Virus record (IMG/VR): IMGVR_UViG_3300046009_000910
Coordinates: 129-64,128 of that record
Length of the DNA stretch: 64,000 nucleotides
Direction: 5' to 3' (one strand)
From: a virus
Taxonomy: Duplodnaviria; Caudoviricetes
In this document: piece after piece, positions 1 to 64,000 of the stretch
Layout: each line of letters begins with the position of its first letter
How positions within the stretch are numbered: position 1 is the first letter of the stretch
Program-made: the position numbers and the translations under genes
The notes under the pieces: generated by a model
What the model saw: the letters and a program-made list of their open reading frames with translations, nothing else
Database searches by the model: none
Told to the model about the DNA's origin: nothing

Positions 1-35
1 CCATGTCGATCCTATCGGGCTAAAGCGTACTTAAA
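1..35. repeat. Terminal direct repeat, left copy (identical to 63963-63997)
   Basis: CCATGTCGATCCTATCGGGCTAAAGCGTACTTAAA occurs at both window ends. Gene order is continuous across the junction (stop at 12-14; ATG at 4-2 equals 63966). Confidence 0.9.
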
Positions 36-1763
36 TGGGAACTCGGCAAAGCAAGCGTAGATTATTGTCTGTCCGCTGCCGTTTATTTCTGCATCAGAAG
101 TTCTAATTTTAAATCCGTTAGAAGTAAAATCCAGAATGTCAGAATTGGTTGCTTCTGCATTTGAGTTGTTTGCAAACAAACGACCATTCATTACGTTGTA
201 GGTATTTCTTGCTGCGTCTAACATATACCATCTGTATGCTTGTGTGGCTGATTTCAGCATAACCCACTCCGGCCTAAATCCCGTGTAAACAAACACACCA
301 TCATTGCTGCCATTGCCAGTGAAACTACCAAATGCACTATAACCTGCCACGGGTGCGAAGCAGTAGGCTACATAGGTGTAAGAAGCGCTTTGGTTTACAG
401 AAACGTCATCACCAATCGTAAATGTTGTTGAACTAACTGCACGAATGTACTTGGATGGAGAACCACCGGAAACTTCTGCTCCTGTTGTATTTAATCCTTC
501 AAGAGCATAATTTGTAGTTAATTTATCAGTCCATACCATCCAGTTAGTAGCATTACTTCTGGACTTAATAATAATCCACGATGGAGACGCACCAAGACCA
601 TGACCTACCGTAGCCCCGCCAGAGCCGTTACCTGTATAAGTAACAACACTAAAGCCAGCAGTTGTACTCGCTCTTACTTGAGAAGATATTGTGCCGCTAG
701 TGTTAGTTACGGTTGAGCCGCCAGCGTTCCAGTTCCATGCGACGTAAGTAAAACCAGTACCGTTTACATCAGTATTTGCACCTAACGTAAAGCCGTCAGA
801 CCCAAAGGCCGTAAGTTCATCGGTTGTTGTGGCTTCTGCCGCCGTAGACGAACTCATTATTCTTTTATTTGCACCACGGACAGTATCAAACAATCTATGA
901 TTTTGTACGTCATTGCGTACTTTCAACCAAGTAAAGTCTGGCGCAAATCCAACCCCGGTAATGTTTTGTGTTGATGAGTTTCCGCTGTACAACACCACAT
1001 TCATGTAATCATTTGCCTGTGTCGTGCTAGTTGCACCGATAGTCGGCGTAGGCAGATTCTGTGTGCAGAGTGCTTTGTATCCGGTTGGCGCTGCATACGG
1101 GAAAGCACTTGCCCCGAAGCAAAAGTCTCTAATCTGCTGCGTGGTGTTCGTGGTATTGTTGAACGAAACATTGTACGGAATGCCTGTCGTAAAGCCAGTT
1201 AGTTGCGCCGTTGAAGATATGTTGGGTGTGGCGTTCTTCGCAATATAAAGTCTTCCGTTATCAGCATCAAACGCAAAGGTATATACGTCTCCATCAGAAG
1301 CAGATGCTGGTGTTGAGTTGGCTGTTACGCCAGCAGCCTTAGCGTATGTCCCATCGGCACGGAATGATGCATAAGTCCCGGTCAGCGTTCCATAACTAAC
1401 TTGCACAGATCCCGGAGTTACCCCTACTCCACCACCGCCTCCGGCTTCGGTGTATGTGCAAGTCCAATACCACTTGCCTGTAGTCGGTATCTGTATTGTT
1501 GCGTGAGTAAAATCATCCGGAAAGGTTCCAGACGGACATACAAGTTTTAAATTGCCGTTTGATAGATTGTATGAAGACGAAGAATTAATTGGATTCATTG
1601 TGGCGTAATTTCCACGCACCTCACCACCAACACCAGTATCGGTTCCGTAGGATGTGGGCGTGTCTGTCAGGCTGTCGTTATTTACTCCCGGCGTGGACGA
1701 GAGGTTATTGGCAGTCCAGTTGTTGCCCCTGCCCGAAGCATCGTAACCAAAGTCAATAGGCAT
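12..1763 (-). CDS. Tail/virion protein, ConA-like lectin/SPRY-like; homologous to the C-terminal part of 60991-63966
   Basis: Shares GYDxSGxxNNWT, NDSLTD, RGNYxT, GKWYW, YVAWNW, AYCFAxVAGYSAFGS, FAExPF blocks with the 991-aa paralog. Confidence 0.75.
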   Translation of the reverse strand: MPIDFGYDASGRGNNWTANNLSSTPGVNNDSLTDTPTSYGTDTGVGGEVRGNYATMNPINSSSSYNLSNGNLKLVCPSGTFPDDFTHATIQIPTTGKWYWTCTYTEAGGGGGVGVTPGSVQVSYGTLTGTYASFRADGTYAKAAGVTANSTPASASDGDVYTFAFDADNGRLYIAKNATPNISSTAQLTGFTTGIPYNVSFNNTTNTTQQIRDFCFGASAFPYAAPTGYKALCTQNLPTPTIGATSTTQANDYMNVVLYSGNSSTQNITGVGFAPDFTWLKVRNDVQNHRLFDTVRGANKRIMSSSTAAEATTTDELTAFGSDGFTLGANTDVNGTGFTYVAWNWNAGGSTVTNTSGTISSQVRASTTAGFSVVTYTGNGSGGATVGHGLGASPSWIIIKSRSNATNWMVWTDKLTTNYALEGLNTTGAEVSGGSPSKYIRAVSSTTFTIGDDVSVNQSASYTYVAYCFAPVAGYSAFGSFTGNGSNDGVFVYTGFRPEWVMLKSATQAYRWYMLDAARNTYNVMNGRLFANNSNAEATNSDILDFTSNGFKIRTSDAEINGSGQTIIYACFAEFPFKYALAR

Positions 1764-18562: not shown

Positions 18563-20065
18563 TTAATAGTAAGCAGCCTTGCGGCTTCTCCAGTTTGTCG
18601 GTGCATCCTGCTCATCGGTAGGTAGGCTAATAAACCCACCGTTCCTAAACCGCAGCAAGGCTTGCGTCATCGTATCCACATAGTCATCGTGCTCCCCAAC
18701 GGGGAAGGCTACGATTTCCTCGATTACATCTTTTGCCCAGCGGCGATCTGGTGCCCAAACAGCGCCCGACGCGAATAAGTCTGATACCGCATTGACCCGC
18801 GCAATCTTGTCATTACCCCGGCTGGGTGAAAACTCGTCTACAGGAATCCCCATACGACGCAGCTCTTGAATAAGTGGAGCGCCAGCCGCCTTTTTCTCCA
18901 CTAAAAACGAATCAGGATCCCACTCTTTATATTGTCTGAGCGCTACTTCCTTTAGCTCCGGGAACTCCATCCGATCTTTAAACGCATCAAGCAAAATTAA
19001 GCTTGGTCTATCGCCTTCTTCTTCGTTATACCAAACTCCCCACGTCGTACACGCCGTGTAGTCACTGGTTGTCTTTGTTTCGTGTGCCGTATCCCACGAC
19101 TGAATGATGAACTCGCACTGCGGTGGGTCTTCTTTCTCCCAAATCCGCCAATGTGTTCTTTTAATAAACGCGGCTGAGTCTAAAGTCGGCTGCTGCATGT
19201 ACTGTGCGTTCCAGTACCGTGCATCCATGTTTGCTTTTTTGGCTTCTAACTGTTCAACAGGCCACTGCTCGGGCCATAAGCTTTTCCCTGACGGCAAAAT
19301 CGCCGGTAACTCCACGATCTCCCACTGATCTGCGTCAGGATTACGCATCTGGTACTGCAAAAGTCTGCCAGTTAAGTCAACTAAGCTCCAACGCGTCATA
19401 ATTACTATGATCGCACCACCCGGCATCAGTCGTTGGAGCGGGCCTGTCTGGAACCAAGACCAAGCGTTATCAAATGTAGCCCTACTATTGGCTTTTATGT
19501 CTTGCTCAGAGTGTGGATCGTCAATAACAAACAGGTCAGCACCACGGCCTGCAAGAGCGCCCCCCACACCAACGGCATAATACTGACCACCAACGCTTGT
19601 ACTCCACTTACCGGCAGCTTTCTGGTCATCTGCGACCAGAGTTTTTGGAAATATCTGCTTATATTCATCGGAATCAATCAAATTTCTGACCCGTCTACCG
19701 AAATCTTCTGAAAGACCGGCGGTGTGGGTCGCCATAATTATCTTTTTGTCTGGGTACTGTCCCAAAAACCACGCCGGAAACAGGTAAGAACTGAATTCAG
19801 ACTTACCCATACGGGGTGCGATGTTGATAATCACACGCTTTTTATGCCCTGCAGCTATGTCTGCAAAGATTTTTCCCAGTTTTCTGTGGTGCGGGCCTTC
19901 TTTAAACCCCGGATATACCGCATGAGCAAAGGAAGTCATGCTCCCCTGCGCTTTTTTTAACCCTGCTCGCCTATGTTGCTCCTCAAGTTCTTCCAAAAAC
20001 TCAAGTTTTTGCGTCGGAGTCATCGTCGCCAGCAAGGCGTTGATCTCAAGCGGGTTCAGAGTCAT
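18563..20065 (-). CDS. terL: Terminase large subunit
   Basis: Walker A APRMGKS, Walker B FVIDD, MTRW coupling motif, nuclease acidic residues SWDTA and HDDYVD. Confidence 0.95.
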   Translation of the reverse strand: MTLNPLEINALLATMTPTQKLEFLEELEEQHRRAGLKKAQGSMTSFAHAVYPGFKEGPHHRKLGKIFADIAAGHKKRVIINIAPRMGKSEFSSYLFPAWFLGQYPDKKIIMATHTAGLSEDFGRRVRNLIDSDEYKQIFPKTLVADDQKAAGKWSTSVGGQYYAVGVGGALAGRGADLFVIDDPHSEQDIKANSRATFDNAWSWFQTGPLQRLMPGGAIIVIMTRWSLVDLTGRLLQYQMRNPDADQWEIVELPAILPSGKSLWPEQWPVEQLEAKKANMDARYWNAQYMQQPTLDSAAFIKRTHWRIWEKEDPPQCEFIIQSWDTAHETKTTSDYTACTTWGVWYNEEEGDRPSLILLDAFKDRMEFPELKEVALRQYKEWDPDSFLVEKKAAGAPLIQELRRMGIPVDEFSPSRGNDKIARVNAVSDLFASGAVWAPDRRWAKDVIEEIVAFPVGEHDDYVDTMTQALLRFRNGGFISLPTDEQDAPTNWRSRKAAYY

Positions 20066-20669
20066 CTTCTTCTTTCACGACAACGTCTTCTGCGTCCGCG
20101 TTGCGTTCTTCTTTTTCTTCCGCCTCGACCTCTATGGTCTTTTGCAGCTGTGCCAGCTTCTCACGTATGCGCTCATCAAGCTCGTGATCCGCCAGTTCTT
20201 CTTTCTTAATACTTACCCGCTCCGTAAACAACCCTATCTCAGTTACTTTACCCAGTAACTCAATAGCTTTTAGGCGTATCCGGGCATCTGGGTGCTCCAT
20301 TTCTTCAACCAGCTGGGCCACAGCTTTGCCCCTGATCTTCCCAGCCTCCTCCACAAACTGCCAGTCATATGCCGAGAGCATAGTCACAAGCTTACGCACT
20401 GCGGGTGGGGTGCTTATTTTAGAAACGATAGTTTTGGCGTCGGGTGCCCCCGTGGTGAGTGCAGCGAACGCTTCTCTGGCTGCGCCAGCTTGGGCAGTCT
20501 GCTCGATAGATTCGTCGTCTTCGGCGCCCAACTCTTTTAACCAGTCAGCCGTATTGATCTGGGCGTCCAACAGTGTGTGGGCCGTAGTTTTTTTAAGCGA
20601 CACGAAGCCGTCGTCTGGGGCGTCCAGAACTTCCGGCTCAAACTCAATTGTCTGCAAGTGATCTAACAA
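20046..20669 (-). CDS. Putative terminase small subunit (start probably TTG near 20669)
   Basis: Directly upstream of TerL; RLKAIELLGK..GLF motif. Confidence 0.65.
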   Translation of the reverse strand: MLDHLQTIEFEPEVLDAPDDGFVSLKKTTAHTLLDAQINTADWLKELGAEDDESIEQTAQAGAAREAFAALTTGAPDAKTIVSKISTPPAVRKLVTMLSAYDWQFVEEAGKIRGKAVAQLVEEMEHPDARIRLKAIELLGKVTEIGLFTERVSIKKEELADHELDERIREKLAQLQKTIEVEAEEKEERNADAEDVVVKEEDDSEPA

Positions 20670-20695
20670 AGCGGGGTTCCCCGTAAAGCGTGGGG

Positions 20696-20723
20696 TTGAC
20701 CCACGTTGGGCGAAGTGTATACT
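20696..20723 (+). promoter_or_regulatory. Predicted promoter TTGACC-N16-TATACT driving the sRNA
   Basis: 5/6 matches to both sigma70 hexamers, about 100 nt upstream of a same-strand terminator. Confidence 0.55.
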
Positions 20724-20742
20724 TGACCGTGACAACCCGCAA
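20714..20742 (-). promoter_or_regulatory. Predicted late-arm promoter TTGCGG-N17-TACACT
   Basis: Correct spacing; upstream of the terminase genes; overlaps the sRNA promoter. Confidence 0.4.
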
Positions 20743-20820
20743 GGGGGGTCTTCTGTTTGTATGTCTCCTTCTGGCTTAAGCGGCCTTTACCCCCCGAACC
20801 TCCTCTCGGGGGGTTTTTTT
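20730..20820 (+). ncRNA. Candidate anti-Shine-Dalgarno small RNA
   Basis: 5' GCAA-tetraloop hairpin; UUUGUAUGUCUCCUU tract; terminator whose loop is ACCUCCUC; no credible ORF. Confidence 0.65.
20789..20820 (+). terminator. Rho-independent terminator
   Basis: ACCCCCCGA-acctcctc-TCGGGGGGT with a T7 tail (first T shared with the stem). Confidence 0.85.
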
Positions 20821-20866
20821 ATGTGGGTGCCAGTGAGCATGGGCGCGAAGCGCCCAATACCTACTC

Positions 20867-20882
20867 TGTCAAATCTTTGACA
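20867..20882. promoter_or_regulatory. Operator family B palindrome TGTCAAA-TC-TTTGACA
   Basis: Perfect 7-bp arms; related copies at 26730, 26750 and 38214. Confidence 0.6.
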
Positions 20883-21135
20883 ATTTTCACTATAATTTTT
20901 ATAGAAATTTTTAGCATATCTGTTTCCCCCTTTCGTTTTTATTTAGGCGTTTGAAGGGGTGGGGGTCAAAAAATTGTCGTGGGTCTGTACACAGGTTTTA
21001 CAAAGTTGGCTTTGCGGCTGACAAATAGTGTCCTTGCGGCGTCGTGTCGTCGTCGCCAAATATGGTTGCCCCCCTGCCGGTGGGGTTCGCAAAACCAAAA
21101 AAGCCTCGGCAACAAACTTTAGAAACTAATGATAA

Positions 21136-21144
21136 TGCTATAAT
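21136..21144 (+). promoter_or_regulatory. Extended -10 early promoter TGCTATAAT
   Basis: Perfect TGnTATAAT about 70 nt upstream of the first early gene. Confidence 0.65.
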
Positions 21145-21177
21145 ATAGGTGTGGTCAGGGATTGGCTCTGCCCATAC

Positions 21178-21194
21178 TGTGTGACTGTCACACA
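21178..21194. promoter_or_regulatory. Operator family A palindrome TGTGTGACWGTCACACA, copy 1
   Basis: Perfect 8-1-8 inverted repeat between promoter and RBS. Confidence 0.75.
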
Positions 21195-21216
21195 AACTTG
21201 TTTAGGAGATACACAA

Positions 21217-21651
21217 ATGAAACAGCATCACATCACAGTTAGCATTGAGCAGTTGTTCGCGGCTTGTGCCGTTGCCACAAAGAAGTTAGTAGAAGTGCAG
21301 GCGGACATACTGCGCGAAGTACGAGGCATGGATATGCCTGAAGCATGGGAGTTCGTGGGCAAGCACATCGTGCCCGTTGTTGCAAAGAAGTATGGCGCAG
21401 TCGCGGAGCAGACACGCAACGGCACATGGACACTCAAACGCAAAGACGGCACACGCCACGACACCGCGTACTCGTTCCTACGCTCATTACTTGCTACGAC
21501 TAACTTGTTGGCAGGAGCAGGCAGAACTAACAAGGGTGCTTCGCGTAACAAGACCGAGAAGGATCTGATGTCACAGCGCGACTTCGTACTCAAAGCCTTT
21601 AAGTTGTTATCCGCAAAAGACCGCGCTTGGGTTATCGCCAACGCATCGTAA
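21217..21651 (+). CDS. First early gene, hypothetical basic protein (start revised to ATG 21217)
   Basis: AGGAGA RBS; flanked by two family A palindromes. Confidence 0.7.
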   Translation: MKQHHITVSIEQLFAACAVATKKLVEVQADILREVRGMDMPEAWEFVGKHIVPVVAKKYGAVAEQTRNGTWTLKRKDGTRHDTAYSFLRSLLATTNLLAGAGRTNKGASRNKTEKDLMSQRDFVLKAFKLLSAKDRAWVIANAS

Positions 21652-21668
21652 TGTGTGACTGTCACACA
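21652..21668. promoter_or_regulatory. Operator family A palindrome, copy 2
   Basis: Identical to copy 1, including the trailing AACTT. Confidence 0.75.
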
Positions 21669-21688
21669 AACTTACTAAGGAGAATCAA

Positions 21689-21853
21689 ATGAGCAAGACT
21701 CACAAAGATGTTATGAAATACTTTGACAAGAACGAAGCGAAGAAGCGGGAGCGCAAGGCTCTGTTGCGGTTCAAGACCGAACACAAACGCAAAGATGACA
21801 AGCGGTTCTACAACTTCACCACATGGATCGAGCGCACAGCCGAGAAAGACTAG
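21689..21853 (+). CDS. 54-aa basic protein (not in ORF track)
   Basis: AAGGAG RBS; MSKTHKDVMKYFDKNEAKKRERK...AEKD*. Confidence 0.65.
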   Translation: MSKTHKDVMKYFDKNEAKKRERKALLRFKTEHKRKDDKRFYNFTTWIERTAEKD

Positions 21854-23820: not shown

Positions 23821-23838
23821 CAACAAAGGAGATGACAA

Positions 23839-23997
23839 ATGAAAACATCATGGTGGTATGAATCAGGACAGGCAGCACAAGCCGCGCAGGAGTTGGTGTG
23901 GTTCGTGGTGTTGGTGTTTATAGGTATTGGTGTAGTGATTTGGTTGGACATAAGAAAAGAGAAACCAAAAAGAAAGGAGCACAAAGATGGGATATAG
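23839..23997 (+). CDS. 52-aa single-pass membrane protein
   Basis: AAGGAG RBS; LVWFVVLVFIGIGVVIWL followed by a basic tail. Confidence 0.6.
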   Translation: MKTSWWYESGQAAQAAQELVWFVVLVFIGIGVVIWLDIRKEKPKRKEHKDGI

Positions 23998-26765: not shown

Positions 26766-26795
26766 TAAATCGTTAATTAAAAGGAGCATATAAAT

Positions 26796-27923
26796 ATGAA
26801 TACAAACGACTTTCTTTCACACCAACAGGTTGCTGACTTAATCAAAGCAGTTGGCGCTACGCGTACCGTCATCGTGATGGGTGAGAACGGCATCGGCAAG
26901 ACAGCCCTGCATAACACGCTGTGCCAAGACGCCAAGTTCGACAACCACATCAAGATCAAGCCCATCGACTCCACGCAGTTGAGCGATGGTTCGCTGACCA
27001 TGCCTGACCTTGATCGTGAGCGTGGCGTGTCCACAGAGTTGCCCAACGAGCGCCTTGGTGTGTCCAAGTTCAATCGCAAAGGCGTAGATGGTTCGCGCCC
27101 TGTATTGGGTATGTTCGATGAGATCGCCAAGGTTCCGCAGTTCGTTAAGAACATGTTGGCTCCGGTCCTCTACGAGCGACGCATTGGCAACTATGTAATG
27201 CCCGAGGGTTCGGTGTGGTTCGCGGCAACTAACCTGTCGTTCGAGGGTTTGGGCGATTCGTTGCAAGCACACCTACGCAATCGTTTGATCGTGGTCAAGA
27301 TGCGTAAGGCTTACACAAGCGAGTGGCTCAACAACTACGCGATCCCCAACGGACTGAACCCCATCATGCTAGCGTGCGTGGAGGAGTACCCGATGATTGG
27401 CGATTCGTTCATGGACTACATGAAGGGTGGCAAGTACGAGGGCAAAGACATCGAGAAAGACAACCCACACATCTTCAACCCCAAGGTTGTGCAAGATGCG
27501 TATGCGTCGTGGCGTTCTATCCATGCAGCATGCGACATCTTAGATGTGATGGATCAGTTCGACTCCGATACCCTGCGTCGTGCGTTGGAGGGTACGGTGG
27601 GTAAGTCATTCGCTTCTGTTCTTGATTCGTTCATTCGCTTCGGGAAACAACTTCCCCCTATCAACAGTATTCTTTCTGCCCCTGACACAGCCCCGATCCC
27701 AAGCAACAAGATCGCGCAACAAGTTCAGGTCTTTCAATTCATCACTCGCGCAGAGGATCGGGATCAAGCGCAGGCGTTCACCAAGTATGTAATGCGTCTA
27801 CAACCCGAGATGCAGTCGTTGTTCTGCCGTCGTGTCGCTGACTCTCAGCGTGTTGGTTTGTTCACAACCGTTACGGAGTTCGGGCGCATGCTGGCTGACA
27901 ACAAGATTTACTACAAAGTTTAA
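26796..27923 (+). CDS. MoxR/dynein-related AAA+ ATPase
   Basis: Walker A GENGIGKT, Walker B MFDE, sensor AATN, arginine finger LRNR. Confidence 0.85.
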   Translation: MNTNDFLSHQQVADLIKAVGATRTVIVMGENGIGKTALHNTLCQDAKFDNHIKIKPIDSTQLSDGSLTMPDLDRERGVSTELPNERLGVSKFNRKGVDGSRPVLGMFDEIAKVPQFVKNMLAPVLYERRIGNYVMPEGSVWFAATNLSFEGLGDSLQAHLRNRLIVVKMRKAYTSEWLNNYAIPNGLNPIMLACVEEYPMIGDSFMDYMKGGKYEGKDIEKDNPHIFNPKVVQDAYASWRSIHAACDILDVMDQFDSDTLRRALEGTVGKSFASVLDSFIRFGKQLPPINSILSAPDTAPIPSNKIAQQVQVFQFITRAEDRDQAQAFTKYVMRLQPEMQSLFCRRVADSQRVGLFTTVTEFGRMLADNKIYYKV

Positions 27924-27944
27924 TAACAAGAAGGAGGTATCAAT

Positions 27945-29150
27945 ATGAATACCAAACAATCTACATGGGACATCATGAGTCCCGAACAGCGCGTGCGTGC
28001 TGTCAACATCGACATCATGAACCACATGGACTTCTGCACGCTGTCTGGTCTGGTCACGATGGGTAATGTCAACATTGTCGATGGCATGCCAACGGCAGGC
28101 ACTAATGGTGTCGATGTGTTCTACGGCACAGAGTTCACGCTACGGCAAACACGCAAGCAGTTACGGTTTGTTCAATGCCATGAGGCGTTACACAAAGCCC
28201 TGCGTCATTGTGTCGATTACAAAGACATCGTGAAGAAGTATCCTGACCTGTCTAACATCGCTATGGATTATGTAGTCAATGCGTTCATTGAGCAGACTGA
28301 CCCTGACCACAAGTTCATCGAGTTCACAACCAATCCAAAGCCTTTGCTCGATCCTAAGTATTACAACCGTTCGTTCGTAGATGTGTTGCAAGATTTACTC
28401 AAGAACGGCACATCTAAAGACGGTGGTGGTAAGGGTGGGCAAGACGGCGGTGATGAGCCACTCGATGAACACTTCCCTATGCCTGAAGATGTTGATGCCA
28501 AGGAAATCGAGAAGCAGATTGAAGATGCCCTCAATCATGGCGATATGGTGCAGAAGCGTTTGCAAGCGGGTAGCAACAAGGGTGGCAACCCTCTGGCTGG
28601 TCTTGGTGTCAAGCGTGATACTGATTGGCGCAACGCCCTGCGTGAGTTCATCGAGCAAGTCGTGACGGGTGACGAGTATTCCCGATTCAATCCCCCCAAC
28701 CGTCGCTTTCTTGCCCATGACATCTTGATGCCAACACATTTTGATGTAGCGATCGGTGAACTGATTATTGCCGGTGATACATCGGGTTCGATGGGTGGTG
28801 TGTATCCGGTGGTGTTCGGTGAGGTAGCCAACATCTGCAAGCAAGCCAATCCTGAGAAGGTTCGTATCATTTGGTGGGACACCGAGGTGTGCGCTGAACA
28901 AGTGTTCAATCGCGGTGAGTTTGATGACATCGCAGGGCTACTCAAGCCTGCCGGTGGCGGTGGTACTTCTCCACAATGCGTTGCTAATTACATCGTCAAG
29001 CACGACTACAAACCAACGGCTGTCATTTGGCTGACCGATGGCTATCTCGATGCGTGCCCTGTCGCTGTCTGTGCCAACGAGTTGTGGGGTGTAGTTAACA
29101 ACGATCATTTTCAACCCGCGCATGGCAAAGCCCTGCGTATTCATGCTTAA
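27945..29150 (+). CDS. Metallopeptidase-like + vWA domain protein (DUF2201-like)
   Basis: TAGTNG, HEALH..LRH, NIAMD..VN, MIDAS DTSGSM, GGGGT, LTDGY. Confidence 0.85.
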   Translation: MNTKQSTWDIMSPEQRVRAVNIDIMNHMDFCTLSGLVTMGNVNIVDGMPTAGTNGVDVFYGTEFTLRQTRKQLRFVQCHEALHKALRHCVDYKDIVKKYPDLSNIAMDYVVNAFIEQTDPDHKFIEFTTNPKPLLDPKYYNRSFVDVLQDLLKNGTSKDGGGKGGQDGGDEPLDEHFPMPEDVDAKEIEKQIEDALNHGDMVQKRLQAGSNKGGNPLAGLGVKRDTDWRNALREFIEQVVTGDEYSRFNPPNRRFLAHDILMPTHFDVAIGELIIAGDTSGSMGGVYPVVFGEVANICKQANPEKVRIIWWDTEVCAEQVFNRGEFDDIAGLLKPAGGGGTSPQCVANYIVKHDYKPTAVIWLTDGYLDACPVAVCANELWGVVNNDHFQPAHGKALRIHA

Positions 29151-29703: not shown

Positions 29704-29722
29704 ATAATAAAGGAGCATACAA

Positions 29723-30595
29723 ATGAATAGATACAACATTGATTCTTGCGCGTTACTCGTTGAGTTCAACGCGTCTGTCTGGACCGCCCGTAAGTTGGAT
29801 AAGAACGCAACTGATGAGGTTGTTGTTAGCAAGCGTGCAGGAGCGAAAGATGCTGCCCGAGTTAACAAGCACCTGCTTGCAGGGCGTAACGAGTTAGATG
29901 TAATTCAAAAGCATGTTAACGCTGTCCGCACCTATGTGTATGAGAACACCCTGCCATGGTCTGACACCGGCATACGCTTACTGCCAACTTCCAAGTTCAT
30001 GGACTTCAACGATCGCATGGGCAAACTTGAGGAAGAATTTGTGGAACTAGTCAACGACTTCGTGCAAGTGTATCCGTCGTTGATTACTGCTCAGGCTATG
30101 GCTCTGGGTGATATGTTTGACCGTAGCGAATACCCAAGTGCCGGTGAGATGTCGCATAAGTTTTCGTTCCGCTTGAACTTCATGCCTGTGCCCAAGGCTG
30201 GCGACTTCCGTGTTGATGTTGGTAACGAAGCACAGGAAGAACTACAAAAGAAGTTAGCCAAGTTGGCTGACGAGCGTATCGAGTTAGCAATGAAGGAAGC
30301 GCGTGAGCGTTTGAAGTCGCACTTGGAGCGCATGATGGAGCGTCTGAAGGTAGAGGAGGTCAATGGCAAGGTCACGAAGTCCCGCATCCACGACTCCCTC
30401 GTTGAGGGTGGGCTTGAACTCTGCGATGTCCTCAAGGCGCTCAATCTTACCAATGACCCTGTCTTGGAGAAGGCTCGCGCTACGCTGGAGAGACTGTTGC
30501 GCACCGTCGATGTTGATGATTTGCGTAAGCATGATTCGGCTCGTGTGGAAGTTCGGACTCAGGTTGCTGAGATTATGGATAAGTTTAACTTTTAA
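29723..30595 (+). CDS. DUF3150-like helical protein, partner of AAA/vWA pairs
   Basis: WTARKLDK, TLPWSD.G.RLLP, LG..FD..EYP motifs; gene context. Confidence 0.6.
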   Translation: MNRYNIDSCALLVEFNASVWTARKLDKNATDEVVVSKRAGAKDAARVNKHLLAGRNELDVIQKHVNAVRTYVYENTLPWSDTGIRLLPTSKFMDFNDRMGKLEEEFVELVNDFVQVYPSLITAQAMALGDMFDRSEYPSAGEMSHKFSFRLNFMPVPKAGDFRVDVGNEAQEELQKKLAKLADERIELAMKEARERLKSHLERMMERLKVEEVNGKVTKSRIHDSLVEGGLELCDVLKALNLTNDPVLEKARATLERLLRTVDVDDLRKHDSARVEVRTQVAEIMDKFNF

Positions 30596-30606
30596 GGAGC
30601 ATACAA

Positions 30607-30867
30607 ATGACAACAAAAAAAGTAAAGCACCCTTGGGAAGCCAAGATTACCGCCGTGCGGGTAGTAGACGACATGGACATGCTGTTCAAACTAAGCACCG
30701 CCCTGACCATTATTGCTGACGACTTAGCACGAAACGATGAGTGCAATCGCCATCGTTGCGCCACAGCATTGGCAGGTGTCGGGGGCGCCATGGATGAAAT
30801 CATCATGCGATTGGGCGCTGACGCAGAAGATGCGGTTGACAAGCACATGGAAGGGGGGAAGAAATGA
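30607..30867 (+). CDS. Hypothetical protein
   Basis: AAGGAG RBS. Confidence 0.65.
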   Translation: MTTKKVKHPWEAKITAVRVVDDMDMLFKLSTALTIIADDLARNDECNRHRCATALAGVGGAMDEIIMRLGADAEDAVDKHMEGGKK

Positions 30868-31166: not shown

Positions 31167-31417
31167 GAGATCTAGAAGAAGAAAAGCAAATCAAAGCCTA
31201 CATGGAGGCAAAGATGACGCACATAAAGATGTACAACGAGTGCATGAACCTTGCCGATGGCCTTGACGTTGAGAAGTTTGCTGAGTTAGTCCGGGCTGAT
31301 GAGCGTGAGGCTTGTGCGAAGTTGGTTGAGGCTGATGCCGATGCTCGTGGTAAAGGCGGCGGCGGATTGGTGCTTTTGAAGGCTGCGGAACGAATCAGAG
31401 CAAGGGGTGAGGAATGA
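31163..31417 (+). CDS. Hypothetical phage protein
   Basis: EREACAK...IRARG motif; GGAGG RBS. Confidence 0.65.
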   Translation: MRDLEEEKQIKAYMEAKMTHIKMYNECMNLADGLDVEKFAELVRADEREACAKLVEADADARGKGGGGLVLLKAAERIRARGEE

Positions 31418-32109
31418 GCATATCAGCAATGAAGCAAGCATTGGAGGCTTTGGAAAAACTCTGGGACATCATTGATGACATTGATACCTATGGCGACATG
31501 GCGAAAAGTGACGACAAGTTGTATCGGTCATTGGTTGAACGCAGACAGCGACAACGCTTTGAGCAAACTGGAATTTCTACAGATGGGTACGAATTGAATG
31601 GTGGGGCCATCACCGCACTACGCCAAGCCATTGCAGAGGCAGAGAAGCAAGAACAAAAAACACCACTTAAGGTTTTGGGCTTAACGGTGTTTACTGAAAA
31701 CCGTTTGCGGAATGGGCGTGTCTACGATGTAGAAACACTACAAGCCATGACCAACAGAGACATTTTGGCTATCCCCGACATGGGTAAAAAAGCACTCAAG
31801 GAAGTTTTGGAGGCGTTAGAGGTTTACGCCATCAACATATCGCAAGAACGTGTCGATGAAACGGCAAAACGTGAACATGACATAGTTGGGGCGTGTGTTA
31901 CTTGTGGTGCGCCTCATGACTTCTGGCTCTCTGCGCCGCCTACCGATTTCATCAGCCCGTCTGTTGTTAAAGCAATTTCAAAGCGTGAATGGGTTGGGCT
32001 GACGGAAGATGAGGCGATAGAACTTTTGCCTGTTGGGGATTGGGAGATTGAATCCACTTTGGATTTTGCCAAAGCCATCGAAGCCAAACTAAAGGAGAAG
32101 AACACATGA
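31414..32109 (+). CDS. Mosaic protein with an RNA polymerase alpha-CTD-like domain
   Basis: Residues 83-135 PLKVLGLTVFTENRL...ILAIPDMGKKALKEV resemble alpha-CTD; C-terminal WVGLT...AIEAKLKEKN. Confidence 0.7.
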   Translation: MSISAMKQALEALEKLWDIIDDIDTYGDMAKSDDKLYRSLVERRQRQRFEQTGISTDGYELNGGAITALRQAIAEAEKQEQKTPLKVLGLTVFTENRLRNGRVYDVETLQAMTNRDILAIPDMGKKALKEVLEALEVYAINISQERVDETAKREHDIVGACVTCGAPHDFWLSAPPTDFISPSVVKAISKREWVGLTEDEAIELLPVGDWEIESTLDFAKAIEAKLKEKNT

Positions 32110-38233: not shown

Positions 38234-38260
38234 TGTAAAACATAAAAAGGAGCATATAAG

Positions 38261-38659
38261 ATGGAGAACATACCCCTCGATAAACTTGCAAAGGTTTATC
38301 GCAAGATTCGTGACCGCGTCGGAAAGCTAACGCAAGAGTACGAAACGCAAGTTGAAGAACTCAAAGCGCAACAAGCTGAGATAGCGAACGCGATGAAAGA
38401 CATTCTGATGTCCACAGGACAAAAGAGTGCCAACACCGACGAAGGAACAATCATTCTGGGTACTAAAACACGGTACACCACGAACGATTGGGATTCGTTC
38501 AAGAAGTTTGTACTTGAGCATGAAGTGCCTGAATTATTTGAGCAGCGTATCGCTCAACGCAACATGACTCAGTGGTTGCAAGAAAACCCGACCTTGATTC
38601 CCCCCGGACTAGATCAAGCGACGGAGTACACAGTTACAGTCCGCAAACCTAGTAAGTAA
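38261..38659 (+). CDS. Conserved replication-module protein (coiled coil)
   Basis: DWDSF..FV, PPGL motifs; strong RBS. Confidence 0.7.
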   Translation: MENIPLDKLAKVYRKIRDRVGKLTQEYETQVEELKAQQAEIANAMKDILMSTGQKSANTDEGTIILGTKTRYTTNDWDSFKKFVLEHEVPELFEQRIAQRNMTQWLQENPTLIPPGLDQATEYTVTVRKPSK

Positions 38660-38669
38660 GGAGATGTAC

Positions 38670-39569
38670 ATGAGTAATGTAGTCGCATTTAATCCCGCGC
38701 AAGTCCCAGACTTTGCGAAAAAGGGCGAGTTGTCAGCGCTGGCTAAAACCTTGGCTGGCGGTGGTGGTCAATCTGGTAAACGTATCAGTATCAAGGGCGG
38801 TGTATTCCGTCTGATCTCTGATGGCAAAGAAGTAGCCGCTATTGAGGATCGCTTCCTCGATGTTGTTATTGTCTCTGCCGCATCTAAAATTAGCCGCACC
38901 TACTACGGTGAAGCTTATAACCCTGACACCCCTGCACCCCCGGCATGTTGGTCAGCAGACGGCGAAAAGCCTGATGCTTCGGTCAAAGAACCACAGCATA
39001 TAAACTGTGCTGGCTGTCCGCAGAACATCAAGGGTTCTGGCGCTGGTGAATCCCGTGCCTGCCGGTTCTCGCAACGCTTGGCTGTGGTGCTGGCTAACGA
39101 CGTTGAGGGTGACGTTCTTCAACTGACGCTGCCTGCTACTAGCGTGTTTGGAAAAGAAGATGGCGAGAACCGACCACTTCAGGCGTATGCAAAGTGGCTA
39201 GCTGCCCAAAGCGTTGGCCCTGACATGGTAGTTACCCGTATGAAGTTTGATACCAAGGCGCAGTCACCAAAGCTGTTCTTCAAACCTATGCGTTGGTTGA
39301 CCGACGAGGAGCACGAGGTCTGCGTTAAAAAGGGACAGACGCCTGAAGCCATCAAGGCAATCACGATGACCGTGGCGCAGACTGACAAGACAGTAGAAAA
39401 GCCTATTGCTCTTGAAGGTAAAGCACCCAAGGCCAAAGTTAAACCCAAGGCTGAGGAGTCCGAGGAAGAAGTTGATGAACCCGAGGTGCGTAAGGAGAAG
39501 GAAGCCCCCGCACCCAAGGCCAAAAGCAACCTCGCTAATGTAGTTGCAGACTGGGACACAGACGACTAA
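38670..39569 (+). CDS. Putative ssDNA-binding/annealing protein
   Basis: RISIKGGVF, CWS.DG, C..CP.N..GS, acidic tail ending WDTDD; between helicase and primase. Confidence 0.6.
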   Translation: MSNVVAFNPAQVPDFAKKGELSALAKTLAGGGGQSGKRISIKGGVFRLISDGKEVAAIEDRFLDVVIVSAASKISRTYYGEAYNPDTPAPPACWSADGEKPDASVKEPQHINCAGCPQNIKGSGAGESRACRFSQRLAVVLANDVEGDVLQLTLPATSVFGKEDGENRPLQAYAKWLAAQSVGPDMVVTRMKFDTKAQSPKLFFKPMRWLTDEEHEVCVKKGQTPEAIKAITMTVAQTDKTVEKPIALEGKAPKAKVKPKAEESEEEVDEPEVRKEKEAPAPKAKSNLANVVADWDTDD

Positions 39570-42996: not shown

Positions 42997-43153
42997 ACGA
43001 GGTCAGGGCTTTTTTGTTCCTAGCCTAGATACAGAAAAGACGCGAGAAGAAGGACTCCGGGCCGCAGTTAGTGCCCGGAGGTTTGACGCCAAAGCTTATG
43101 TCGGTGTAATTAACGGGCGGCTTGGCGTTCTATTTGTTCGCGGACCACTTTGA
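42956..43153 (+). CDS. Small conserved protein
   Basis: YPWSRLERGQGFFVP motif. Confidence 0.6.
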   Translation: MTKLAIQYPWSRLERGQGFFVPSLDTEKTREEGLRAAVSARRFDAKAYVGVINGRLGVLFVRGPL

Positions 43154-46100
43154 AGTTTTGAGCCATGTCGATCTTGACTTGGCGTAGTTGGTCCAACTGC
43201 TTGCGCTTTTCTTCCGGACCCATCTGCGATGACGGTGCTGCTTTGATGGCACGCTCAGCCTTGGTAATCTCACCCATGCGCTGACGGAAAGCCCCAGCGT
43301 AACCAGCCATACCAATGTCACCAATGTTCTTCTTAATGTAATCCTGCGCTTCTTGCAGTTTGCCTTCCTCAATGAGCCGCTTGTACGTACCCTGCTTTTG
43401 CTGAACTTCCTTCACAGACTCAAAGGCTTCATTGATTACGCGCCCAGCGTCGTTAGGCTGGAACAGGCCACCAACTAACGGCATCTCAGATACTCGACCT
43501 TCGACTGCGCCTGCCTCGGCTCCGGTCTTCAGCACAGGGTTAGCAATACTTAGTATGCCCACGCCCAAAGCACCGGTGTAGCCACGAATAATATTCTCAG
43601 CCTGAACAGGCGATAAACCAAGCAACTCCAACACAGGGGCGACAGCCTTGAGAACTTCAGGCGTCTTGTCACGATACTGGAACTGTTTCTCAACGCCTTC
43701 CAATCTAGAATCTACGATGTCCCGTCCAGTAAAGAATGATCTGTTGAGCGCCGTCTCAATAAACGGTTTGATGGCTGTTGGCACTGGTACACCAGCGTCG
43801 GCTGGGTTGCCGGGTAGTGAACGGAGCAACTGCATACCTAAATCTTTAGCAACCTTGCTGCCTTTCTCGTCACTAAACGCTGCGTTGTATACGCCTTCCG
43901 GTACGGCCTTAAAGAGCAGACCAACTTCAAACGGGATCGGCACACGGAACGGCTCGTCAAAGCCCGGGATACGAACAAACCAGTTGCCATAACGCTGCTC
44001 TGGCTCTGCGTTCTTATAGGCTTCGTCGTCCTGCATCATCGCGGCATAGGCCATGGTGAGAAGCGCCATCATGCCGCCACGGACTAACAACTTCTTCTGG
44101 ACCTGAAGCTTTTGCTCATACGGCATCTGTCCTGTAAACGCACGGTACAGAACGTCAATACCTTGGATACCGGCGTTGAAGAACGGGATGGTTGCGTTCA
44201 GGAAGTAGATACTTGGCGATACCCCACGGCGACCAAAGTTCATGGACTCAAGCGCCGCCAGTGTGGCCTCACGCTCCGACAAACCCTGTTTCAGGAACGA
44301 GTTGTACATAGCCATGCGAGTACCGGCATCACCCTTCATAGCGATAGAGTCCAGCTTAGCCATCGCCAAATCCCACCCGGGCTTACCAGCAGCAATCTGC
44401 TGCATGATCTTCGCCATATCTTCAGGAGCGCCAGTAATTACCTGACCGCCCAGTACACCCCGGCGCTGCAGCTTTTCAAAAGTCTCGCTGCCCTTGCCAT
44501 ACATCTTAACAATCTCACCCATGGTATCGACCACAGGCTTCATATTGGCTCCGGTTGTCAGCGTGGCTGCTAAAGAATCACGGAAGATCTGACGTACTGC
44601 GTAGCGTGGATCGCGGGTAACAAACTTACGTAGCCAGTTAGCAGGCGTAGCCAGTGCGCGGACCGCACCCGGAACGATAACCTTGATACCCTCCATACCC
44701 TTAACAACTAAGTCAGAGGGGATGTCACCAAAAATGTCTTCTTTTGCTTGGGTGTTGATTACTGCATACTTTTTGCGGTGAACGATCTTGCCGTCTTTGT
44801 CTTTCTCGTCCATGCTAAAACGAATGATGTTTGAAGCGGCGGGGCCATCACCGTTATGGATTTCAGCAACACCAAGGTCCATCAAAGTAAACGCAGCGTT
44901 TCTGGTAGCCAGATTACGCAGTGCCATGTCGGTCAACAGGCTGGTGTTTTGAAGCGACGAGGTAAAGAAGTCCATGATGGCTTCATCGCCACCAACAAGT
45001 TCTTGTAAGTAGGGTTGAGATTTAATGTCACCAATACGGATCGGGTTTTCAGAACCAATAATAAGTTCTACGTTACCCCCACGCATACGGTAGAACGGCA
45101 CGTAGTCATTGGTCTTAGAGAGCCGCGCACCTTCTTCCTTACTCAGTGCGCCAGTCTGTACGGCAAACTCAATCAGGCCACGGTTGTAATCGTTGTACAG
45201 CTCCCGGGCTTTCTGAAATGCTTTACCGGTTGCGGTGCTTTCGTTTTTACCTAGTGCAAGCACACGATCTAACTCAGCCTTGGTGATCTTGCCGCCAAAG
45301 TTTAGCTTCTCAATGCCAACCCGCTGCGCACGCTCAGCAGCCAGATACAGCGTAAACAAACGACCTGTGGCTTCAGCGTTACCCACACCAGCGCCTAACA
45401 ATGCTTGGGAAACATCTTTCAAGCTAGCGCCGCGCTCAGACTCAATAATCTTTTCAGTACGTCCGTCAGGGCGTTTCACATCCTTAAGCTTCAAGGCTCC
45501 GTTATTGGCAATTTCTGCCACAAACGAATGACGCTGGTCAGCCATACGGGCAAAGTACATCATGTCTTGGGCTTTCAGGGAGTCAATGATCCCTTTCTCC
45601 ACACCCTTTTTACTTAATGCTTCCAGTGCAGCAAAGCGATCCACGAACTGCACCCTAGCCGCCAAACCCGTAGCGTTGGCTTTAATGCCATCCCACATAC
45701 CCTGTTGACGACCTACAATCTTGTCAGTCATTTCACCAAGATCTTCCATGCCGGGGTTGTATTTAGTTGCCCCCAACCGGAAAGCTACGTCGTCATCACC
45801 CTTCTTGTACGCAATAGCTTTGCCTTCTTCAAAAGACTTGTTGGCTTGCTTCATCATATAGAACAGGTCAGACGTAGAAAAGTCCATGTCCATGCCAAGC
45901 TTCTTGAAGAACGCTCGTACTGCGCCAACCAGTTCTTGCAACCAGCGCTTAGCTTTGGCTAAGAAGTCTTGGTCAACCCGCTTCTCCATGGTGTAAGCGA
46001 TGATCTCGCGCAAACCTTTGGTCTTTGCAATACGACGAACATCTTTCTCGCTGATCTTACCTTCAGCCAAATCTTGAGCGTAGAACTTACCGGCACTGGC

Positions 46101-49100
46101 AACGGCTTGAGCGTAGTCATCCAGAACTCCTAGCTCTTTAGCCAGAACTTCCAACCCGCTTTCGTTGTCCTTGGTAGCAAAGTCTTTGTCAATCTTAAGC
46201 ATGAACTTCGTCATACCATCTTCACCCATCATGCCTTCAAAGGTGTAGTGACCGATAAACTCGTGAGCAACGGTCTTCTCTAGATCGGTCATATCGGTGT
46301 GGTTTTCACCAATAATAAACACCGTGCCGTCAGGCTTCACACCACCGCGTATACGCGTCTCGTATACATCTACCCCTTGCCGCGCCATATCCTTCAGGAT
46401 GTCCACGGTTACATCGCCCATGGTGGGGAAATACTTAAACTTCAAATCTTTGGGTAGCTTATTTGCTACCTCATCCATGCGCTTGTTGGCTTGCTCAAGG
46501 TCAATTCCACCACCCGCAGTGTCGCCAATACGGAAGTCAACCACGTCATCCACAGAGAATGTACGGGGGCCGCCGTAAGCGCTTAAGCCCATGCCAGACA
46601 TATTGCGTAGTTGATCGGGCGTAAACTTCTTGTCGTAGTACGGTACTTCGCCACCAACAGGGCCACGGGCAGCTTGGCGCTTTACTTTCTCAGGCTCGTA
46701 CTGTGTTTCTTTAAGTAAGCGCAGATTCTCACGGATGCTTCGGACATTGGCTTTAGCCATGTCAACTTCAGCGCTCATCTTCTTAAACTTGGGGAAGTTC
46801 TTAGCAGCTTTGCCTGCGTTAACTTCTTTGACATACTTGTTAAGCTGGAACGTTTTAATCTTGGCAAGTTCTACCGCAGCTTTTTCTTCTTCCTTTAACT
46901 TGTCAAACATAGCTTCGGGGGAAGACACCTTGGCCTTGCGGCGCAAGTCGCTGACAGCATTACGTTGACGCTCAGCTATTTCCGCATCAAGTTCTGCTTT
47001 AGATTTAACTGGAACAACATGAAACTTAGAAGGCAGTTTAACTTTTTTAACTGGTTTTTCCTGAGCTTCTTTTTCTTTTGGCGTTAACTTTGCATATGCA
47101 GCTTTAGCTTTTTTAAATTCAACTGCGGCTTCTTTACGCGCTTTCATTAAGTCATTAATAAATTCTTCACGCGTTTTAGCTATAAGCTGTGTGCCGGGAA
47201 GACCTAAGCCAGAAGCAATTCTTTGATTTAATTCAGTTTCTTTTTTTGCAAGTTGTTCTGCTGCAGTACGTCTTGCAAGTGCTATTTTTTGTAATGCTAC
47301 ACGTTGTTGTGTAGCTAAAGCCTTAGCTTTTCTTTGTTCCAATGAACCTTTTGCAAACTTAGAGGCTTGATCTTCCAAATTTTTTACGTCTTTAATTTCT
47401 TGTGCAATGCTTTCATCTAATCGAATCCACTTTTGCACAGTTGTATCAGGCACCCACGTAAGCCGAAAACCTTCTGTAGAAATTTCAAACTCAGCATCTT
47501 CAGCTTTTAAATCTTTAGCCGCTTGTTCTAAACGACTAAGCAATAACTGATGCCTTGGCTCTTTAACTTTTTCAAGCAGCTTATCTGCTTTTTGAAACGA
47601 AGCTGTTTGAATATCTTGTTTAGTTTGTTTAACTAAAGCGTTTATTTTGCCAAGTAAATCACGTTGTTTTGCTTGAATGTTCTGAGGTGAAAGCTCTTCT
47701 GCAACTTCACGTGCAGCTTGCTGCGTTTCAATCCGAATTTGTTCTGCTTTTTTCTTTGCCTCTGCAATCCGTGCTTTTTCTTTCCGAACAGCACCAGACT
47801 TTTGCAGACGCTGGAACTGCCCCGGTGTAGCACGCTCGGTAGCTACGGTTTCTGGGAACAAGTCAGGCTGAACACGCTCCTCACGGAACTCGCGCCCTTT
47901 GGGCACGGTGGTCATTTGTTCACCAGTAAACTGCGTTGTCTCAGCGTCAAACCGCATCTGAGTCTTGATCTCGTCAACCAACTCTGCCGTACCGGCAGCA
48001 GCCATTGCACGACGACCTCCGGGTTGGGTTACATCACGCTCTAAAGTAAACGGGCGGTCAGTCCCACGGAGGATTCTGCCAACCTGTTCCTCAACCAAGT
48101 CTTCTAACCCAACACTAGCGCCACCTTCTTCCAACCGACGACGTGCCTGCTCTAACGTATTTGCTACATCAGGCTGTAGATTTTTCATGCGCAGTACACG
48201 GTCAAGGTCTTTAATAAGGTCTGTAGGGGCAGCAGCGTACTGTTTCTTAAGTAACGGCTTCTCACCAGCACGAACGGCACGTTTGCCTGCGTCGATGGCT
48301 TCATCTTTAATTTGTTTGATGTACTCAGACAGTACTTCAATAGCACGGCGGGGGTTGCCAAACTGACGTTCAGATAAAGGGCGTGGATCAATACGGGCAG
48401 TCCGGGCTTCTTTAACAATTTCTGTCCCGCGCATTTGAGCGGGTTCAATCTCAATTTCTGTAATTGCTGCACCTCTGGGTAATGCAGTGCTACGAGTAAT
48501 AAGTTCCTGTAAAGCTTCATCAATCCGTATGCCAGCTCCAATAGCTTCATCACGCGTAAATTGACGCAAACCCCGTAGCTGACGCTCGTATGCAATCTCT
48601 TTAATCAGACCGTCAACAACGTCTTTACGCAGTGCCTCAGACTCCTGAATCAAACCCTCACGCTTGGAACTAGCCAGCGCGCGCTGGGCAGGCGATGCTT
48701 CTTCACCAAAGAAACGGCCCTTACGGTAATCATCCATCAGAGCTACGATGTCTTTAAACGATCCGTCCGCAGTCTTACGGGCATCTTCAGCCTGCTTTTT
48801 GTAAACACCACTAGGTTTACCCGGCTCAATCTCAACGGCTAGGGGAGCAGCAGCTTCACGAGATTCAGTTTCCAAACGACCAACTAGCGCAGCTTCAGCA
48901 CCAGTCTCAGGCTCAACACGCCCCTCAACAACAGCCTGAAGACGCTTAAGTTCCCTGAGTTTTGCTTCTGCGCCAACAAGTTTATAGCCAGCAGGGGTTA
49001 GCTGGCCTTTGTTGTCCATGAGTTCTTTCTTACTAACCAGCGCTTTTTGCCGTTGTTCTTCTAACTTATCGATAGCAGCTTTGATATTAGGCAGTACTTC

Positions 49101-63966: not shown

Positions 63967-63997
63967 GTCGATCCTATCGGGCTAAAGCGTACTTAAA
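63963..63997. repeat. Terminal direct repeat, right copy
   Basis: Identical to positions 1-35. Confidence 0.9.
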
Positions 63998-64000
63998 GGG

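Follow-up and report, generated by a model that had tools for sequence, protein, structure and literature searches.

A candidate phage-encoded small RNA with an anti-Shine–Dalgarno core and a seed flank that covaries with early start regions of the same phage

The stretch of DNA analyzed here (64,000 nucleotides, hereafter the window) covers almost all of a phage genome of 64,128 bp, the two ends of its assembly overlapping. The genes are organized in two arms. The late arm occupies the minus strand from position 20669 leftwards, wrapping round to 43110, and contains terL, an SU10-type portal, the capsid gene, and a gene for a 2575-aa polyvalent protein. The early/replication arm occupies the plus strand from 21217 to 42996 and contains a family-A polymerase, an SNF2 helicase, and a primase-helicase. 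The scanned proteins of the window revealed no phage RNA polymerase, and a tRNA scan found no tRNA genes. A search at the DNA level gave no match to named phages, and the three nearest named phages according to TerL (HTVC027P, 023Pt_psg01, and DSL-LC04) share 51–56% identity. The divergent gap that separates the late and early arms holds a short unit with the features of a small RNA (sRNA) gene, including a predicted anti-Shine–Dalgarno (anti-SD) core, and its surroundings are as follows:

20046–20669, minus strand: gene upstream of terL with which the late/packaging arm opens (207 aa, TTG start); start placed from homologue N-termini
20696–20723, plus strand: predicted sRNA promoter TTGACC-N16-TATACT (TTGACC at 20696–20701, TATACT at 20718–20723)
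20714–20742, minus strand: predicted late-operon promoter TTGCGG-N17-TACACT, a single site in the window
20729–20820, plus strand: predicted sRNA of about 90 nt, its ends placed from promoter and terminator; covariance model R1 matches 20728–20820
20731–20750, plus strand: 5' hairpin H1 with a GCAA loop and two A·G mismatches inside, from the fold; its pairs covary in alignment A3
20751–20772, plus strand: single-stranded seed, with the invariant anti-SD core UCUCCUU at 20764–20770, from the alignment of relatives
20773–20785, plus strand: hairpin H2 with a GGCU/GGCC stem; all 6 pairs show two-sided changes in A3
20789–20820, plus strand: intrinsic terminator with loop ACCUCCUC and U7, from the fold; hairpin and T-run are found in all parsed relatives

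Homologues of the 207-aa late protein are numerous (917 found), and most of the best 120 listed begin with MLDHL or MLEHL; in many relatives ATG replaces TTG as its start codon. Since this gene starts at the TTG at 20669, and not at 20735, it does not overlap the candidate RNA. A metagenome scan with the same protein returned 6 loci only. On the other side of the gap, the first early gene (start at 21217) encodes a protein of 144 aa; of the 72 copies of the RNA with at least 500 nt of downstream sequence, 71 are followed by a homologue of this gene. No function for this protein emerged from Pfam, PHROGs, a PDB sequence search, or the Atlas. Its AF2 model is good (pLDDT 87), and Foldseek with this model returned nothing at E < 0.5; VIA-align reached a Z of 5.1 at most, with KH-like rows below the noise level of the tool itself.

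The preliminary description, made from the sequence of the window, had recognized in this gap a self-contained unit formed by a promoter, a GCAA hairpin (20731–20750), a tract, and a GC-rich terminator, all of which could be confirmed in the sequence at the positions given above. The plus-strand ORFs across the unit are of 29, 65, and 39 aa. TTGACC-N16-TATACT is the sole plus-strand sigma70-like site in 20000–21700; however, the promoter scan gave 2 sites as compared with 1.0 ± 1.1 in shuffled sequences and, therefore, the promoter match alone is not significant. Among the 36 unique relatives with enough upstream sequence, 23 have a TTG located 16–18 nt upstream of a TAnnnT hexamer. The predicted fold of the sRNA consists of the 5' hairpin, the unpaired tract, and the terminator, with a minimum free energy of −35.3 kcal/mol (z −2.5; equaled by 2 of 200 shuffles). 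The terminator hairpin (20789–20814) has 9 pairs, 7 of them G-C, and an 8-nt loop, and is followed by T7. The 3' module of Hfq-dependent sRNAs is made up of a U-rich stretch, a terminator hairpin, and a poly-U tail; the phage sRNA presents CUUUA, a 9-bp hairpin, and U7 in this order, and a CTTT-like stretch 5' of the terminator appears in most rows of alignments A1 and A2.

The predicted late promoter and the sRNA promoter are arranged back to back, their −10 boxes overlapping by 2 bp, and the gene-strand TACACT occurs in 20 of the 36 relatives. The motifs CTTG-N19-22-TAYACT and GTGTAYAC do not repeat as promoters elsewhere in the window. In the metatranscriptome data (two RNA runs, small shares of each), contigs cover only 21046–21196 and 20541–20694, leaving 20723–20863 uncovered. 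One of the metatranscriptome contigs ends at 20694, within the predicted late 5'UTR. The overlap of the two predicted promoters would make their simultaneous occupancy impossible, and this arrangement could be taken to mean that the unit works on the DNA or at the level of transcription, as a promoter–terminator pair that competes with the late promoter and insulates the early arm, its RNA having no target. However, such a device would leave the invariant unpaired UCUCCUU, the covarying hairpins, and the covariation between flank and start regions described below without explanation, and it is considered very unlikely.

A search with TerL yielded 80 loci from relatives. Those with intact upstream DNA show a TAYACT box, a hairpin, TCTCC, a second hairpin, and a GC-rich hairpin with a T-run, an order of elements that recurs with a constant orientation towards the late gene. 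Alignment A1 comprises 31 of 56 unique sequences, relatives with long insertions being left out; TCTCC is invariant in all 31, at least 90% of which retain GCAA. RNAalifold applied to a plain MAFFT alignment missed the helices and, therefore, a hand-drawn structure was given for 17 similar relatives (alignment A2). The covariance model R1, built solely from 17 distant relatives, finds the window at 20728–20820 on the plus strand (30 bits, E 2e-4) and provides one syntenic, same-strand match in 70 of 72 sources; in the two sources that it misses (L031 and L039), the upstream DNA is only 36 and 103 nt long. In HTVC027P, 023Pt_psg01, and DSL-LC04, R1 has no match up to 4 kb from terL. In alignment A3, 92.6% of the cells are paired, whereas shuffles average 67.3% and none of 500 attains the real figure; double, two-sided changes occur at 22 of 23 base pairs, and controls with slid partners are 45–50% paired; A3 was fitted to the R1 model and so leans towards the structure, yet the margin over the controls is large. 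A bare sequence-pattern scan of bacterial and archaeal genomes gave at least 120 stretches in unrelated taxa, which are almost all due to chance because R1 matches only 2 of the 80 pattern loci listed, the negative control (L205 with 58 bits and L256 with 23 bits).

The strand of the unit can be read from the same alignments. Of 58 unique relatives, 48 have a plus strand that folds more stably than the minus strand, by −5.2 kcal/mol on average over the set (Wilcoxon p 2.5e-8), and G-U pairs amount to 235 of 1436 pairs on the plus strand versus 46 of 1243 on the complement. Their share is 25% in H1 (211/843), 8% in H2, and 6.6% in the terminators. With conservation, covariation, and strand-specific G-U pairs, the initial reading of the locus as a plus-strand sRNA gene was borne out: judged from this comparative evidence, 20729–20820 (+) is a genuine, uncatalogued sRNA gene, its G-U content placing it on the plus strand. 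Moreover, the features generally expected of a trans-acting sRNA, namely, a putative promoter of its own, a terminator, a conserved structure, and a predicted unpaired seed, are all present in the unit.

A viral-contig pattern scan added further relatives, giving a set of 83 unique RNAs, in which AAGGAGA and the spacer might alternatively be read on the late strand, as the start site of a short leader ORF of the packaging operon, with the plus-strand promoter and terminator being incidental or an insulator; its likeness to other start sites of the phage would then follow simply from its being one of them. Indeed, an antisense ATG lies 4–10 nt after GGAG in 32 of the 83 copies, and in the window the frame is open into the late gene. 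Nevertheless, the ATG is missing from 51 of the 83 copies, its frame with respect to the late gene is not conserved among relatives, no gene-strand −10 box is seen upstream at a suitable distance, and the predicted late promoter is situated on the downstream side of this site; in addition, the hairpins favor the plus strand and a T-run follows the hairpin on that strand only. RNAs of the window's own subgroup (WIN-type) reach the AUG of their predicted targets through G-U wobbles and have the antisense ATG in 0 of 13 copies and, therefore, pairing between RNAs is favored over an antisense start. A leader ORF is thus held to be highly improbable, and the plus-strand sRNA gene remains the preferred reading.

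Searched against Rfam at gathering thresholds, neither the window nor 16 relatives gave a match, and the RNA is uncatalogued in this sense. The best sub-threshold match is RF02278, the Betaproteobacteria toxic small RNA (29.7 bits versus a cut-off of 50, E 1.4e-4), at 20762–20820 on the plus strand; the alignment spans the entire model (positions 1–64), with UGUCUCC identical. The next sub-threshold matches are anti-hemB, ar14 (RF02344, 17.8 bits versus 58.8), and CcsR1 (RF02791, 11.8 bits versus 65.3), all of them sRNAs with a pyrimidine seed. The C4 family of Rfam does not figure among the 9 matches with E ≤ 10 that were listed for 20600–21250. The toxic sRNAs of Betaproteobacteria are described as RNAs of 57–92 nt, proposed to bind the ribosome-binding sites (RBSs) of many mRNAs, which are expressed in Burkholderia and Herbaspirillum and are toxic when cloned in E. 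coli (PMC4603805, PMC7011215). The architecture of RF02278, in which an unpaired 5' UGUCUCC precedes a hairpin and then a U-tailed terminator, is found in the phage RNA too. However, the phage RNA has an additional 5' hairpin and scores below the cut-off, and the toxic sRNAs are chromosomal genes whose native function is unknown, unlike the RNA described here, which is phage-encoded.

Another comparison is offered by the Cuckoo/alpha-r14 sRNAs (NfeR1 and CcsR1-4 of Alphaproteobacteria), which are portrayed as trans-acting RNAs made of adjacent hairpins with freely varying stems and an ultraconserved unpaired anti-SD motif, and which silence their several targets through pairing in the translation initiation region (PMC4615179, PMC10746234). 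This motif, CCUCCUCCC, is placed in the loop of each of 2–4 adjacent hairpins (PMC4615179), and NfeR1 is reported to silence ntrB through its anti-SD seeds by occluding the RBS (PMC10746234). Both groups have hairpins, a conserved unpaired anti-SD motif, and several targets, which in the phage are predicted. However, whereas CCUCCUCCC occupies every loop in Cuckoo/alpha-r14 RNAs, the phage RNA carries a single UCUCCUU in the linker between hairpins. The second anti-SD motif that the preliminary description had pointed out in the terminator loop does exist in the window, but further unpaired CUCC/CCUC motifs are found in only 23 of the 83 unique RNAs, and the family does not share the Cuckoo loop pattern. 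The phage RNA also differs in its lineage-specific extension over the spacer and AUG and in that its predicted targets are genes of the phage itself.

In the window, the tract had been claimed to pair with seven regions between SD and start codon, and all seven pairings hold when recomputed base for base. The predicted targets, ranked where indicated among 35 early-strand starts, are the following:

21204–21219, plus strand: start region of the first early gene (144 aa, start 21217); 13 bp with one mismatch, −14.5 kcal/mol
23826–23841, plus strand: start region of a 52-aa gene (start 23839); 13 bp with a bulge
26781–26798, plus strand: start region of an AAA-type ATPase gene (start 26796); 14 bp with 1 G-U, rank 3/35
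29710–29725, plus strand: start of a 290-aa DUF3150-like gene (start 29723), the best predicted target; 14 bp with one bulged U, rank 1/35
30594–30609, plus strand: start region of an 86-aa gene (start 30607); 14 bp with one bulged U
38247–38263, plus strand: start of a 132-aa DUF7307-like gene (start 38261), the most consistent orthologous target; 14 bp with 2 G-U
38658–38672, plus strand: start region of a 299-aa gene (start 38670); 13 contiguous bp with 2 G-U, rank 4/35

Cofolding with the full-length RNA gave net energies of −13 to −21.6 kcal/mol for six predicted targets, including −21.6 for the site at 29710 and −16.8 for that at 26781, versus −5.4 to −9.7 for three controls; the other pairing energies given in this work ignore accessibility. 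When the 10-nt 5' flank was shuffled 1000 times with UCUCCUU fixed, the mean of the seven best starts was −17.3 for the real flank versus −15.4 ± 0.95, a value reached by 3.3% of the shuffles; the same proportion (3.3%) reached the observed early mean, and 13% reached the observed number of starts at or below −13. Thus, pairing of the flank in the window does stand above that of shuffled flanks, but only modestly so (about 3%), and within the window alone pairing beyond the SD exceeds chance only modestly. The late RBSs had also been said to pair less, with about 8 bp at the capsid start, a figure that recomputation reproduced (8 bp). The contrast itself is seen (early-strand starts −15.3 versus late starts −12.2 kcal/mol, p 2.4e-4), but it reflects mostly SD strength, the bare core UCUCCUU giving −6.8 versus −5.1 (p 1.9e-4).

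Comparison across phages is more telling. The 18-nt seed of each of 20 seed clusters was paired with the start of the first early gene, and the own seed performed better than those of other clusters in 16 of the 20 (mean z −1.17; p 0.0012 by Wilcoxon and 0.022 by t-test); applied to the late 5'UTR, this comparison revealed no covariation (z −0.06, p 0.98). Earlier tests of own versus other seeds, restricted to about 3 kb of the early region, were not significant (p 0.06–0.09; p 0.11), and two relatives (L082 and L112) have the seed of the window, yet their first early gene is non-complementary to it. A matrix of ten genomes with nine distinct seeds was then computed on whole records, with genes called by a simple and crude ORF-plus-SD rule. 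G007 (14 early-strand genes) and G010 and G012, whose RNA was not located by regular expression, were left out of it; G001, which has the same seed as the window, was merged out for the permutation, and G008, G011, and G013 lie outside the genome set. For early-strand starts, the mean of the five best pairings was −18.77 kcal/mol with the own seed versus −15.48 with other seeds (permutation p 5e-6, 200,000 permutations), whereas late-strand starts showed no own-seed effect (−12.43 versus −12.25, p 0.29). The own seed was best in 6 of the 9 rows and closely similar seeds won in the other 3; the row of the window is only slightly diagonal (−17.6 versus up to −16.8).

Individual genomes illustrate this match. 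G003 has AGGAGAAGCAAAUG at several genes, and its RNA reads CAUUUGCUUCUCCU; in G005, 13–14 starts lie at or below −15 with the own seed and 1 with most other seeds. Orthologues of the gene starting at 38261 rank among the top 7 in all 8 genomes (7/35, 3/32, 5/34, 6/45, 2/32, 3/35, 3/39, and 3/34), and their spacer changes along with the seed. For the DUF3150-like gene (29723), the rank is 1 in two genomes and 5 or 6 in four, with a poor match in another two, and a DUF2201 gene (27945) is first in two; the DNA polymerase, the primase-helicase, and the gene at 35542 are mostly poor matches by orthology. The match between seed and targets across genomes is thus far beyond chance, and the original proposal that the seed is fitted to the RBSs of the phage's own early and replication genes gains its main support here, own seeds fitting own early starts best over the nine seeds. 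The alignments and start regions compared show covariation between the predicted seed flank and a group of early-strand start regions of the same phage, seed and target spacers changing together from genome to genome.

These results bear on the possibility that the RNA is a generic anti-SD RNA, similar to the toxic sRNAs, that works through its core only and damps any message with a strong SD, the outcome being host shut-off or competition for ribosomes and the effect on the phage's own genes incidental. Several observations agree with it: the 7-nt core is the sole invariant of the family, the nucleotides 5' of it being lineage-specific; the core alone yields the early-versus-late contrast of the window; the nearest Rfam model begins with UGUCUCC; and the flank that matches spacer and AUG, free in the window phage, is held base-paired in the 5' hairpin in many relatives. 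However, a mechanism based on the core only predicts none of the covariation of the flank with own early, but not late, starts, and for this reason it appears rather unlikely, though it is the least improbable of the alternatives considered.

The favored explanation is that the locus encodes a trans-acting sRNA of about 90 nt that is probably the translational repressor of an early/middle regulon, and it is most likely that, by pairing with their start regions, the RNA switches off the translation of the phage's own early genes. The host RNA polymerase would transcribe the sRNA from its sigma70-like promoter, TTGACC-N16-TATACT. UCUCCUU, exposed between two hairpins, would pair with SD sequences of the AAGGAGA type, and the 5' flank would pair with the spacer and start codon common to a set of own early-strand genes. 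The resulting duplex from SD to AUG would keep 30S subunits off the message and so repress translation, and the early/middle regulon would be shut down as the sRNA accumulates, which seems the most plausible role. In relatives that keep the flank in H1, contact with the SD could serve as a toehold, after which the G-U-rich hairpin would open and the duplex extend. Moreover, the sRNA promoter and the predicted late promoter would exclude each other, which could tie synthesis of the RNA to the early/late decision.

The same pairing could in principle have the opposite effect, the sRNA helping the messages to which it binds by shielding early transcripts from a nuclease or defence system directed at exposed SD sites, or by delaying and staging their translation. 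The pairing evidence carries no sign of the effect, and a sigma70-like promoter means that the RNA may exist from the start of infection. Nevertheless, a duplex over SD and AUG normally blocks 30S binding, and the anti-SD sRNAs characterized in the literature are described as repressors (PMC10746234), so that a helper role is regarded as improbable. Going beyond repression itself, a more speculative extension, for which the odds are judged slightly unfavorable, is that each lineage would have a private SD–spacer–AUG start-site code in its early/middle genes and a single sRNA as the key to it. UCUCCUU would then act as the toehold and the G-U-weakened hairpin as a gate that opens on cognate spacers, turning the regulon off (or staging it) in a manner that is orthogonal between related phages and could give a form of heteroimmunity.

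Among phage RNAs, the case that a review of phage-derived sRNAs treats as RBS blocking is c4 of P1 and P7, which blocks its own message by pairing around the RBS (PMC12197685). The RNA described here is likewise phage-made and is predicted to pair around the RBS of messages of its own phage. However, c4 controls one operon (ant) in the immunity of a temperate phage and is processed from a longer transcript, whereas the present RNA, with its anti-SD core, would be transcribed from a dedicated promoter to a dedicated terminator and has many predicted targets at scattered genes. P22 sar and P4 CI are also phage RNAs that block their own message near the RBS. A functional analogue is found in T4, where the endoribonuclease RegB inactivates early messages via GGAG SD sequences and ends the early phase; RegB, however, is a protein nuclease that cuts, whereas the phage RNA would mask the site, with the spacer setting specificity. 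In the literature searched, no phage RNA that combines an anti-SD seed with a multi-gene regulon of its own was found. By analogy, the phage RNA would act like the anti-SD, RBS-occluding sRNAs, yet it is a member of none of these families. Thus, on the comparative evidence, it represents a new, uncatalogued family of phage sRNAs of the putative anti-SD, RBS-occluding kind.

The small RNAs of phages that are virulent and uncultured have, to our knowledge, hardly been studied. In the present case, the comparative signal alone points both to the RNA and to its probable targets, and an orthogonality matrix among related phages is a further prediction from it. If confirmed, the system would show how a phage without an RNA polymerase of its own times its expression post-transcriptionally, and it would provide a naturally occurring collection of translational repressors that are short, programmable, and orthogonal to one another.

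The late arm, that is, the packaging and structural genes read leftwards from the intergenic region that also holds the sRNA gene, seems to be transcribed from its own predicted promoter, placed back to back with that of the sRNA. Two elements of this region are the following:

20670-20742, minus strand, predicted late-arm promoter (TTGCGG-N17-TACACT) and 5'UTR
20867-20882, palindrome TGTCAAATCTTTGACA, just 3' of the sRNA terminator

Measured from the predicted promoter, the late-arm 5'UTR is about 37 nt long and includes two conserved hairpins, one of which has a GNRA-type loop whose complement provides the TTG of the sRNA -35 box, while the other is found directly 5' of the weak TTG start of the late gene. 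Moreover, in the related loci L003 and L008 it is the gene strand of these hairpins that carries the G-U pairs, as read from the sequences. On the early side, most relatives retain the palindrome in the form TGTCnAAnnTTnGACA, where it overlies the -35 box of the early promoter and probably serves as an operator. In the preliminary description, candidate further copies were marked at 26730-65 and 38214-29, ahead of two sRNA-matched genes.

The early genes considered here are:

21217-21651, plus strand, first early gene (144 aa)
26796-29150, plus strand, a pair of genes, for an AAA-type ATPase and a DUF2201 protein, both sRNA-matched

The first early gene is conserved beside the sRNA gene in 71 of 72 relatives, and its product is without a known family. 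The AF2 model of this protein is confident (pLDDT 87) and gave no significant structural match; the weak top rows of the structural comparison are KH-type RNA-binding domains, with Z of at most 5.1, which is under the noise level. In the gene pair, the DUF2201 protein combines metallopeptidase-like and VWA-like domains, and the best sRNA match in relatives falls either on the ATPase gene or on that of the DUF2201 protein. Furthermore, a start region of 16 nt, AAGGAGCATACAAATG, is identical in two neighbouring genes (29710-29725 and 30594-30609), and near-identical start regions common to several genes of one phage also occur in relatives.

A strong copy of the sRNA (58 bits with the covariance model) is present at positions 2287-2374 of L205, a contig of 4.9 kb that was assigned to a Phycisphaerales MAG; this is probably a misbinned phage contig and no evidence for a host. 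With regard to the genome ends (window positions 1-200 and 63850-64000), the first 128 bases of the source record (1-128) recur near its end, and thus the assembly represents either a circle or a molecule with terminal redundancy.

Two further proteins of the window are:

43110-50837, minus strand, large polyvalent protein of 2575 aa that carries an LPD38 domain, at the distal end of the late arm
31414-32109, plus strand, phage protein with an RNA polymerase alpha C-terminal-domain-like domain (Pfam RNA_pol_A_CTD, E 7e-8)

The latter could act on the RNA polymerase of the host; the phage itself appears to encode none.
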